Source of the DNA: Candidatus Bathyarchaeota archaeon
GTDB taxonomy: Archaea; Thermoproteota; Bathyarchaeia; 40CM-2-53-6
Direction of reading: 5' to 3'
Length of the DNA stretch: 64,000 nt
Assembly (NCBI GenBank): GCA_963706285.1
Contig: CAVPLU010000012.1
Coordinates: 96,001 to 160,000 of the forward strand
Position numbers and translations under genes: made by a program. The notes below the pieces were generated by a model that was given only the letters and a program-made list of their open reading frames with translations, had not been told where the DNA came from and made no database searches. This document shows positions 30,928 through 53,519 of this stretch, piece after piece (positions within the stretch are counted from its first letter, which is position 1; every line of letters starts with the position of its first letter).

Positions 30928-31303
30928 CTCAAATCGTCAGAGGCACGAGGCGCATATGCCTTAACACTTCCCTAGAGACACTGGGCATGTCTCCAAAGTG
31001 TATATAGAATGGATTTCAGCATTTCCACTGGAAATCGACGAGCGCTAGGACCACCGCGCCGCATCCTTTCTGTCTGAACTTCGATGAGCTCCAAGCGCGT
31101 TTTGATTACTTTTGATGGTGAGTTGCTGCATCTTCGCGACATCTGGAGCTTCCATGATAACAATTCCGAATTCTGCGAATCCACAGTGACCAGAGAGTGG
31201 ACACTCGCTTTTTCGCGCCCAGTCGCAAGTCATCAACACTGCGGATCAAGAAGATCCGGATGTGAAGGTTTTTACGGGCACAAGCGCTCTCAACTGTTTG
31301 CGT

Positions 31304-31468
31304 AGCCCGGTGGTGTAGCGGTCAAACAGCCTAATGGACTAGGCATAGCAATGGCGCCAGACCAATGAGGCCACTAGATGGCTCTGGATCCCGCACTAGG
31401 AGAAGAAACCTGCCGACGGGAGTTCGAATGGTTCGTTAGAGAACCCGAACATCTCCCCCGGGCTACCA
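31304..31468 (+). tRNA. tRNA-Gln(CUG) with four introns (31326-31342, 31351-31379, 31388-31407, 31429-31451)
   Basis: Exons join to AGCCCGG TG GTGT AGCGGTCAA GCAT A GCAGG CTCTGGA CCTGC CGAC GGGAG TTCGAAT CTCCC CCGGGCT ACCA (76 nt; A1-U72 as in archaeal tRNA-Gln; encoded CCA). BHB/BHL-like motifs at the junctions; TATA-like TTTTTA about 30 nt upstream. Confidence 0.92.
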
Positions 31469-31769
31469 TCAACCACCGCCATTAGATTAGAGGTGGTTTC
31501 TCATCAGGGCAATCAACGCCATGACCCACGCCTTTCCGGCGTTGATGAGAACTCTCAAAGCGGCCCCTCTTTCCCGGAAAGCGGCCCCTCTTTGGAGGAT
31601 GTGATCAAGCACCATGCTAGCGGTCCACCACCTAGACGGCAACAAGTGCAATCTTCTACCCGTGGAATCTGGCTCAACTGAGGACTCTCCTGCTGTGACG
31701 AGCCTGGCGTGACTCAAATCCATGCATCTGAACCCAAAGACATCATTATGCTTCCAAGAAACCGATTAG

Positions 31770-52958: not shown

Positions 52959-53519
52959 TTAGGCCTTGAACCAGCGGAAGACCAGATAGTCCATCTTGGC
53001 TTTCTTCTTCTTCGGAACTGCGATGGTGAATTGTTTTCTCACAGTGGTCGCAAGTCTACCGGCTAGCACAATCTCGAACGGACCCATCTTGTCGTTCTCG
53101 GTTCTTCCGGTCACTATGAAGGGCGCATGGTCAATGCCGGGGCCATGCTCATAGACGGCAAAATCCGATCCGAATCGAATTCCTGGAGTAACGATGAATC
53201 CTTGATTGCGGAGGTCCTTGTAGACTGAATAGCCAAGTTCGAAGTTCTTGTATGTAACCGCAGCTAGCTTCATCAACCGAGCACGAGTTATCGGTTTTCT
53301 AGTTTTCGTGTCAATGACATTGATTCTCCTTTTCTCTTGAAGGTAGAGCGCCTCCATCATGTCCAAGACTAGGGGAGCAGAGAATTCCTGGTCCGGTTTG
53401 GGTTTTGGGATGCCAACCGGTTTTCCAAAGAATCCTTGTCGGTAGATGGCCACGCCGTCTCTGGGTTCCCATACAATGAGTCTTGTCCCTACGAGTTCAG
53501 CAACTGTCTTGCCAGGCAA
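52959..53519 (-). CDS. endA: tRNA-splicing endonuclease catalytic subunit with crenarchaeal-specific loop
   Basis: GFFGKPVGIPKPK (CSL), EALYL, VYKDLR..G, G.RFGSDFAVY, HAPF, RLATTVRK (Y/H/K triad); single unit, 186 aa. Confidence 0.94.
   Translation of the reverse strand: MPGKTVAELVGTRLIVWEPRDGVAIYRQGFFGKPVGIPKPKPDQEFSAPLVLDMMEALYLQEKRRINVIDTKTRKPITRARLMKLAAVTYKNFELGYSVYKDLRNQGFIVTPGIRFGSDFAVYEHGPGIDHAPFIVTGRTENDKMGPFEIVLAGRLATTVRKQFTIAVPKKKKAKMDYLVFRWFKA

Follow-up and report, generated by a model that had tools for sequence, protein, structure and literature searches.

The closest described counterparts of the locus analyzed here are the multi-intron tRNA genes of other archaea, which constitute the main natural test bed for the origin, movement, and tolerance of archaeal introns. 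PMC4033280 gave a "maximum of three introns" for an archaeal tRNA gene, and PMC8450103 likewise gave "up to three", together with 71 introns in 46 genes of P. calidifontis. For Asgard archaea, 228 introns were reported from three genomes (Valentin-Alvarado et al. 2024, PMC11291895), and an October 2026 bioRxiv preprint (10.64898/2026.10.13.758758) stated 2.2 intervening sequences per tRNA gene in three families, with up to five in one gene. The tRNA-Gln(CUG) locus lay at 31304 to 31468 (+ strand) of the window, i.e., the whole 64,000-nt stretch of DNA analyzed, which belonged to a Bathyarchaeia genome (G000; C-numbers denote its contigs), and it carried four introns. An 809-aa protein encoded nearby shared 91-92% identity with an entry from an uncultured Candidatus Bathyarchaeia archaeon; the source is neither Thermofilum nor Pyrobaculum. 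The first-pass annotation had placed four at or beyond the described maximum: this held relative to the peer-reviewed figure of three, as far as the statements in PMC4033280 and PMC8450103 go, and did not hold relative to five, a number given in the Asgard preprint and found in two genes of G000. The locus is very probably a functional gene, the only tRNA-Gln(CUG) gene detected in this genome, giving a ~165-nt precursor with four protein-spliced introns.

The window was read and the locus cut by script. Its 165 nt comprised five exons (22, 8, 8, 21, and 17 nt) and four inserts (17, 29, 20, and 23 nt) at Sprinzl sites 21/22, 29/30, 37/38, and 59/60, with 89 of the 165 nt being intron. The exon and intron lengths, the four positions, the anticodon, the 76-nt CCA-ended product, and the statement that more than half of the gene is intron had all been given correctly in the first-pass annotation. 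The features were as follows:

31265 to 31277, + strand: A/T-rich promoter-like element AAGGTTTTTACGG, a candidate BRE/TATA, ~27-39 nt upstream of the mature 5' end
31304 to 31325, + strand: exon 1, 22 nt; acceptor 5' strand, U8 G9, D stem 5' strand, and D loop to A21
31326 to 31342, + strand: intron 1, 17 nt, site 21/22, relaxed HBh' motif
31343 to 31350, + strand: exon 2, 8 nt; D stem 3' strand, A26, and G27-A29
31351 to 31379, + strand: intron 2, 29 nt, site 29/30
31380 to 31387, + strand: exon 3, 8 nt; G30 G31 and anticodon loop C32-G37, with anticodon CUG
31388 to 31407, + strand: intron 3, 20 nt, canonical site 37/38
31408 to 31428, + strand: exon 4, 21 nt; A38, anticodon stem 3' strand, variable region, T stem 5' strand, and T loop to A59
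31429 to 31451, + strand: intron 4, 23 nt, site 59/60, perfect hBHBh' motif
31452 to 31468, + strand: exon 5, 17 nt; U60, T stem 3' strand, acceptor 3' strand, A73, and encoded CCA
31469 to 31676, no strand assigned: dispersed repeat directly 3' of tRNA-Gln(CUG); the tRNA reading is independent of it

The joined exons formed a 76-nt cloverleaf tRNA-Gln(CUG) ending in CCA, in which all four stems were paired with no mismatch. It contained a 7-bp acceptor stem whose first pair, A1-U72, is typical of archaeal tRNA-Gln, followed by U8 G9; a D stem of four pairs (two of them G-U) with the D loop AGCGGUCAA; a 5-bp anticodon stem with the 7-nt loop CU-CUG-GA including U33; a 4-nt variable region; a T arm GGGAG-UUCGAAU-CUCCC (GGGAG-TTCGAAT-CTCCC in the DNA); and A73 plus the encoded CCA. 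The conserved tRNA bases were all there (U8, A14, G18 G19, U33, G53 T54 T55 C56 A58 C61). The 13-mer AAGGTTTTTACGG recurred at equal distance in five of seven same-genus orthologues (see below), and the other four orthologues had different A/T-rich blocks (TTTAAGATAC and AAGGTTATTA) in its place; it is a candidate promoter element, with a putative role.

BHB-type junctions were found at all four introns, strict at intron 4 and relaxed at introns 1 to 3. With C for the 4-bp central helix, built on the four exon bases that precede the 5' bulge, and with h and h' for the outer and inner helices, the motifs were (i) at 21/22 (intron 1), C 4/4 (one G-U), h' 2 bp, and no h; (ii) at 29/30 (intron 2), C 3/4, h' 4 bp, and h 3 bp; (iii) at 37/38 (intron 3), C 3/4, h' 3 bp, and h 2 bp in the primary transcript and 5 bp after removal of intron 2; and (iv) at 59/60 (intron 4), C 4/4, h' 5 bp, and h 5 bp. 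The earlier descriptions of these junctions, including the perfect BHB of intron 4 and the imperfect central helix of intron 3, were confirmed. The relaxed motif classes taken alone are weak evidence. Intron 3 would have a perfect GGAG partner with a 3' bulge three bases longer, and its C was 4/4 in orthologues G006, G019, and G023. The splice site of intron 4 could be shifted one base to the left with the product unchanged, the BHB being formed only with the 59/60 placement. Across 11 homologous copies of the intron-4 motif, 98.1% of 154 pair cells were paired versus at most 69.5% with slid partners; both sides had changed in only one of 14 pairs, and 34 of 500 shuffles reached the observed paired share. 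Covariation proper in this motif appears weak. Intron 4 showed 96% identity to intron 4 of the tRNA-Gln(UUG) paralogue.

Because exons 2 and 3 are just 8 nt long, adjacent motifs share or compete for bases: precursor bases C79-U80 were used by both the outer helix of intron 2 and the central helix of intron 3, and precursor base 40 lay in the 3' bulge of intron 1 and also in the outer helix of intron 2. A like situation of closely spaced introns was described in the tRNAscan-SE 2.0 paper (PMC8450103). The four motifs are not all fully formable at once, which implies stepwise removal or passage through alternative folds. The minimum free energy of the precursor was -60.3 kcal/mol (ViennaRNA; z = -2.4 versus shuffles), in a fold that did not contain all four motifs; with the four central helices plus the acceptor stem forced, it was -42.7 kcal/mol, at a cost of 17.6 kcal/mol. 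As a caveat, this predicted energy gap would count against the four-motif picture. The intron-aware scan (see below) additionally offered an alternative 16-nt D-loop excision for intron 1, with a similar or slightly higher score and a lower-quality placement. The overlapping motifs, the 17.6-kcal/mol gap, this alternative excision, the 3/4 central helices of introns 2 and 3, and the absent outer helix and 2-bp inner helix of intron 1 all favor a reading in which the gene is real and one or more weak-motif inserts, above all intron 1, are cut at different bonds, follow a different pathway, or are removed with lower efficiency. The orthologues described next bear against this reading, and it is considered unlikely.

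BLAST of the tRNA-Gln(CUG) locus against 41 related genomes gave a match in 34. Nine orthologous genes were compared, G000 among them as reference, seven being from one genus and two from another, and they displayed four intron sets: (i) 21/22, 29/30, 37/38, and 59/60 in G000, G001, and G019; (ii) 21/22, 29/30, 37/38, and 53/54 in G006 and G023; (iii) 10/11, 29/30, 37/38, and 53/54 in G009 and G004; and (iv) 29/30, 37/38, and 53/54 in G008 and G003. Seven of the nine orthologues had four introns, and the intron sets varied between species of one genus, with six positions in use overall in varied combinations. The T-arm intron lay at 53/54 rather than 59/60 in six of nine, and an extra 10/11 intron was present in two, with one and the same mature sequence. 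The exons kept 75 to 76 of 76 bases, with no mismatch to G000 in seven orthologues and a single one (C16/T16, exon 1) in two, while the inserts differed in sequence, length, and position: the lowest intron identities to G000 were 11/18 (21/22), 22/29 (29/30), 15/20 (37/38), and 16/23 (59/60). Intron 2 was present in all nine, 22/29 to 29/29 identical to that of G000. Judged from this comparison, selection apparently acts on the exons only.

Intron 1 was missing with exactly the predicted borders from G008, G003, G009, and G004, whose D loop was AGCGGTCAA, as expected from the borders given by the first-pass annotation. DNA contigs of metagenome run X1 also contained a form without intron 1, with GCGGTCAA directly before 31343. 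The borders of intron 1 are adopted because the orthologues without it leave exactly GGTCAA|GCAT; the scan alone does not decide between them and the 16-nt excision. Cutting at different bonds would leave the tRNA with a D arm that differs from the one in the nine orthologues, and the central-helix partner of intron 1 varied among orthologues on the intron strand (GACT, GATC, and GGCT) with four pairs always kept, both of which argue against processing at other bonds and for splicing of intron 1 at the borders adopted here. Presence or absence of introns and shifted positions with an unchanged mature product indicate that the inserts are inserts, independently of the motifs.

Metagenome contigs supported the inserts, the point on which the first-pass annotation had proposed that its reading could fail: the introns were covered by a 398-nt contig of run X3 over 31150 to 31441 (two differences) and a 155-nt contig of run X1 over 31365 to 31519 (three differences). 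The inserts could also be an assembly or binning artefact (a chimeric contig or collapsed strains), since the MAG shows 7.5% contamination, and the contig pairs C1/C6 and C4/C20 carry tRNA regions in duplicate. Against this stand the X3 and X1 contigs, the length of the contig (173 kb), and the like architecture assembled independently in eight other genomes, and an artefact is judged scarcely credible; the inserts are taken as real.

The comparison was extended to eight further tRNA-Gln(CUG) genes of the order, seven in six other families and one (G015) in the same family. They contained (i) four introns in G028, G033, and G034; (ii) three in G025, G038, and G039; (iii) two in G015; and (iv) an uncertain number, at least three, in G037. 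The 29/30 intron was present in five of the eight: G015 of the same family, and G028, G033, G038, and G039 of four other families. A further locus, L035, gave a noise-level solution only. The tRNA-Gln(UUG) paralogue of G000 (C4:264371-264535) had four introns (10/11, 21/22, 37/38, and 59/60), its orthologues in six same-genus genomes likewise had four, and its acceptor stem and T arm were common to tRNA-Gln(CUG). The existence of this paralogue, together with the 89% completeness of the assembly, leaves room for the view that the locus is a silent or decaying pseudogene, with CAG read by tRNA-Gln(UUG) or by a copy absent from the assembly. This view is very unlikely, as exon sequence changed little or not at all between two genera and in other families while the introns drifted, the promoter-like element was conserved, the cloverleaf had no mismatch, and tRNA-Gln(UUG) was itself equally interrupted. 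A functional tRNA-Gln(CUG) gene remains the preferred reading.

The first-pass annotation had warned that standard tRNA finders may miss the gene, and both tools applied did so: ARAGORN found no tRNA in the whole window, and Rfam gave no match at 31200 to 31600 even at E up to 10, and none in the window at gathering thresholds. A custom intron-aware cloverleaf search took the form of a depth-first walk from N73-CCA backwards along the tRNA template, in which any 10- to 100-nt interval passing a loose BHB filter may be skipped; the tRNA-Gln(CUG) locus scored 78. With the strict setting, the G000 genome gave 33 solutions with at most four introns, and the reversed genome gave 374 solutions, none with at most four introns, 19 with five (best score 63), and 355 with six.

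An intronless tRNA-Gln(CUG), whose absence the first-pass annotation had proposed to check, was not found in the 89%-complete MAG by ARAGORN, Rfam, arm search, or intron-aware scan. Run on the whole genome with introns allowed, ARAGORN returned 25 calls, and CTG was not among their anticodons; of the 31 matches to the Rfam tRNA model on G000, 16 passed the cut-off and none was a second CUG gene; and the fuzzy search for a contiguous anticodon arm gave eight unrelated matches with three mismatches, none similar. The scan gave a single further CTG solution, at C10:25321 (five introns of 39-96 nt, score 67), which was at noise level and was rejected. The locus is provisionally the sole tRNA-Gln(CUG) copy in G000, provisionally because the assembly is a MAG with 89% completeness and 7.5% contamination. 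From the RNA-labelled runs X17 (RNA) and X18 (RNA?), nothing aligned to the stretch; a spliced tRNA with 8-nt exons would not align to genomic sequence.

The splicing enzymes were sought in the same genome. A tRNA splicing endonuclease catalytic (alpha) subunit was encoded in the window itself:

52959 to 53519, - strand: EndA alpha subunit, 186 aa, PF01974 at 87.9 bits

Its best solved relatives, aligned over the full length, were 2cv8_A (4.4e-40), 3p1z_B, 3ajv_B, and 2zyz_B, which we take to be catalytic subunits of the Sulfolobus, Aeropyrum, and Pyrobaculum enzymes, and the alignment included a stretch at loop GKPIGISKPK of 2cv8, presumably the Crenarchaea-specific loop. A second, non-identical EndA-fold ORF of 174 aa was present on C6, and the two subunits may assemble into an alpha/beta heterotetramer. 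RtcB was represented by PF01139 at C4:105729-107043 (- strand) in two adjacent overlapping frames (326 and 261 bits; model positions 1-243 and 236-426; open frames of 281 and 226 aa), which could be due to a frameshift, an assembly error, or a split gene. G000 thus appears to encode an endonuclease of the type that accepts non-canonical sites, plus RtcB for 2',3'-cyclic phosphate/5'-OH ends. An alpha/beta endonuclease with RtcB is the set expected for relaxed, non-canonical sites, according to PMC4090602 and PMC4033280.

In the proposed pathway, the locus would be transcribed as a ~165-nt precursor, in which each intron and the exon bases just upstream would form a bulge-helix-bulge motif; the alpha/beta endonuclease would cut in the two 3-nt bulges, probably at the bonds named above, and RtcB would join the exon ends into the 76-nt tRNA with its encoded CCA, which would then be aminoacylated. 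The anticodon stem flanking intron 3 would form only once intron 2 is gone, so that removal may be stepwise or proceed via alternative folds, in an order that is tentative. The conserved exons versus drifting inserts, the reversed-genome null, and the splicing enzymes in the genome together argue for a functional gene and not a chance pattern. The four-intron observation is confirmed, and its reading is well supported.

The region directly downstream was a separate subject. Exon 5 plus ~200 nt downstream constituted a ~225-nt module at four G000 loci (window 31452-31676, C4:264519-264679, C3:122445-122669, and C18:10363-10573), and on C3 and C18 the tRNA part was limited to the 17-nt exon 5, no tRNA lying upstream of it. 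The module core, with a twice-repeated AAAGCGGCCCCTCTTT, had 14 further matches on 11 contigs, and word depth reached ~3000 at 31541-31591 in the wetland metagenome run X1. Two readings of this module were rejected: (i) the C3 and C18 copies as att sites of integrated elements, the eight flanking ORFs scanned being of housekeeping types with no integrase; and (ii) a hammerhead reading of the CTGATGAG words in the downstream repeat, to which no Rfam family matched at any E up to 10.

The intron-aware search was also applied to the whole G000 genome as a census. The D-arm and anticodon-stem rules were relaxed, and under these rules the reversed genome once more yielded nothing of the kind; a class II pass was added, which covered introns of at most 45 nt across the genome. 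In all, the census resolved 34 different tRNA genes carrying 88 introns, which measured 13-65 nt (median 21); 65 of these introns had a 4/4 central helix plus a flanking helix, four had a 4/4 central helix only, and 19 had a 3/4 central helix. No gene was intronless, and tRNA genes of G000 appear to be all interrupted: seven genes had one intron; 10 had two; nine had three; six had four (Phe GAA, Gln UUG, Gln CUG, Asn GUU, Arg CCU, and Glu UUC); and two had five (Pro GGG and Trp CCA). The mean was ~2.6 introns per resolved tRNA gene in a partial census, which contained no gene for Arg GCG/UCU, Asp, His, Tyr, or Ile-CAU and left about a dozen expected tRNAs outside. Further tRNA-like loci lay outside the 34 at C4:424466-424581, C6 ~70355 (Leu UAA-like), C13:128554 (Ser CGA-like), C4:191214, and C16:56049. 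The scan was seeded on CCA and so missed the tRNA-Ser(GCU)-like locus at C4:5388-5457 (- strand), the only one without encoded CCA among the 18 tRNA matches listed, whose 5' part lay beyond at least one insert. Six- and seven-intron solutions were not clearly above the reversed-genome null (six, 57 versus 56; seven, 63 versus 58), the top seven-intron match was not tRNA-like, and both classes were rejected. The two five-intron genes were as follows:

C3:165484-165727, - strand: tRNA-Pro(GGG), five introns (32, 64, 20, 19, and 30 nt), all with 4/4 central helices
C13:120377-120597, - strand: tRNA-Trp(CCA), five introns, one of them canonical and 65 nt long

The 32-nt (7/8) and 64-nt (13/14) inserts of tRNA-Pro(GGG) were missing from eight three-intron orthologues, and G015, with four introns, had only the 7/8 one; the mature sequence was near-identical across orthologues, with up to three D-loop differences. 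Since a near-identical mature tRNA results from fewer introns, the 7/8 and 13/14 inserts of G000 are exact additions; neither had another copy in the genome. The five introns of tRNA-Trp recurred in G003 and G004. Euryarchaeal tRNA-Trp introns hold a guide RNA, which the 65-nt intron recalls; a box C/D RNA in it was rejected, as sR40 matched only below threshold (14.8 bits, E 3.6). Blastn-short of the 88 introns all versus all, used to look for transposition from one tRNA gene to an unrelated one, gave two pairs, both between isoacceptor paralogues.

Two pairs of near-identical tRNA regions were observed on different contigs: (i) C1:14034-14186 and C6:90769-90921, with Arg UCG and one difference; and (ii) C4:222230-230678 and C20:1503-9127, with Met and Thr GGU identical. 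These duplicates fit the 7.5% contamination or strain heterogeneity of the MAG.

Multi-intron tRNA genes are a known annotation blind spot, G000 showing only 16 tRNAs above the Rfam cut-off, and the effect was seen across the 41 genomes. At E up to 1e-5, the Rfam tRNA model found 4-16 tRNAs per genome in 25 genomes of the family and 7-27 in other families of the order, even at 96-100% completeness. Given these low counts across the order, heavy tRNA interruption looks to be an order-wide trait. The tRNA-Gln(CUG) gene is probably part of a wider picture, in which tRNA genes of a Bathyarchaeia lineage are hyper-interrupted throughout the order, a condition so far undescribed; the lineage would then be a third theatre of tRNA intron gain and loss, independent and still active today. 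The partial-census mean of ~2.6 introns per gene, with six four-intron and two five-intron genes, matches or exceeds the Asgard record and goes well beyond Thermoproteales. The presence or absence of introns at species level provides dated, exact insertion events independent of the Asgard cases, and tRNA counts, which serve as a MAG quality standard, would fall far short of the true numbers in this group, which is abundant in sediments and wetlands.

A literature search, with the supplements of two Asgard papers outside its scope, returned no description of four- or five-intron tRNA genes in Bathyarchaeia, and "Bathy" occurred 0 times in the preprint 10.64898/2026.10.13.758758. The four-intron tRNA-Gln(CUG) is a previously unreported lineage of an already known phenomenon, and it was compared with four known systems. 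Split and tri-split tRNA genes (Nanoarchaeum and Caldivirga) also have pieces bounded by BHB-type junctions at similar positions, but their separate loci are joined in trans, whereas the five exons of the G000 gene were collinear within 165 nt. A split or permuted gene was rejected on this collinearity, and the exon 5 copies on C3 and C18 had no BHB partner upstream. Nuclear tRNA genes of Cyanidioschyzon merolae share BHB-type introns at D-arm, 37/38, and T-loop sites, with stepwise removal shown experimentally, but belong to a red-algal nucleus, have at most three introns per gene, and are in some cases circularly permuted, as given in PMC3728597.

Thermoproteales (Pyrobaculum, Thermofilum, and Caldivirga) share short protein-spliced introns at canonical and non-canonical sites (D arm, anticodon stem, and T loop), strict and relaxed BHB motifs, and the alpha/beta endonuclease, and sites 29/30, 37/38, and 59/60 are presumably among the intron positions known there. 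They differ in the maximum of three per gene stated in the published accounts cited above, compared to four here, five in two genes, and ~2.6 per resolved gene of a partial census in G000; moreover, intron transposition between unrelated tRNAs was reported there, while G000 gave no sign of it in the all-versus-all comparison, and Bathyarchaeia are another lineage. Asgard archaea are alike in extent as far as PMC11291895 and 10.64898/2026.10.13.758758 describe them: nearly all tRNA genes interrupted, over half multi-intron, up to five introns per gene, many D-arm inserts missed by standard tools, and repeated lineage-specific gains. They differ in being another phylum, and the partial-census mean of 2.6 in G000 is at or above the Asgard 2.2 stated in the preprint. 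The main interest is the lineage: a Bathyarchaeia order with tRNA interruption at least as heavy as that of Asgard archaea and with species-level differences.
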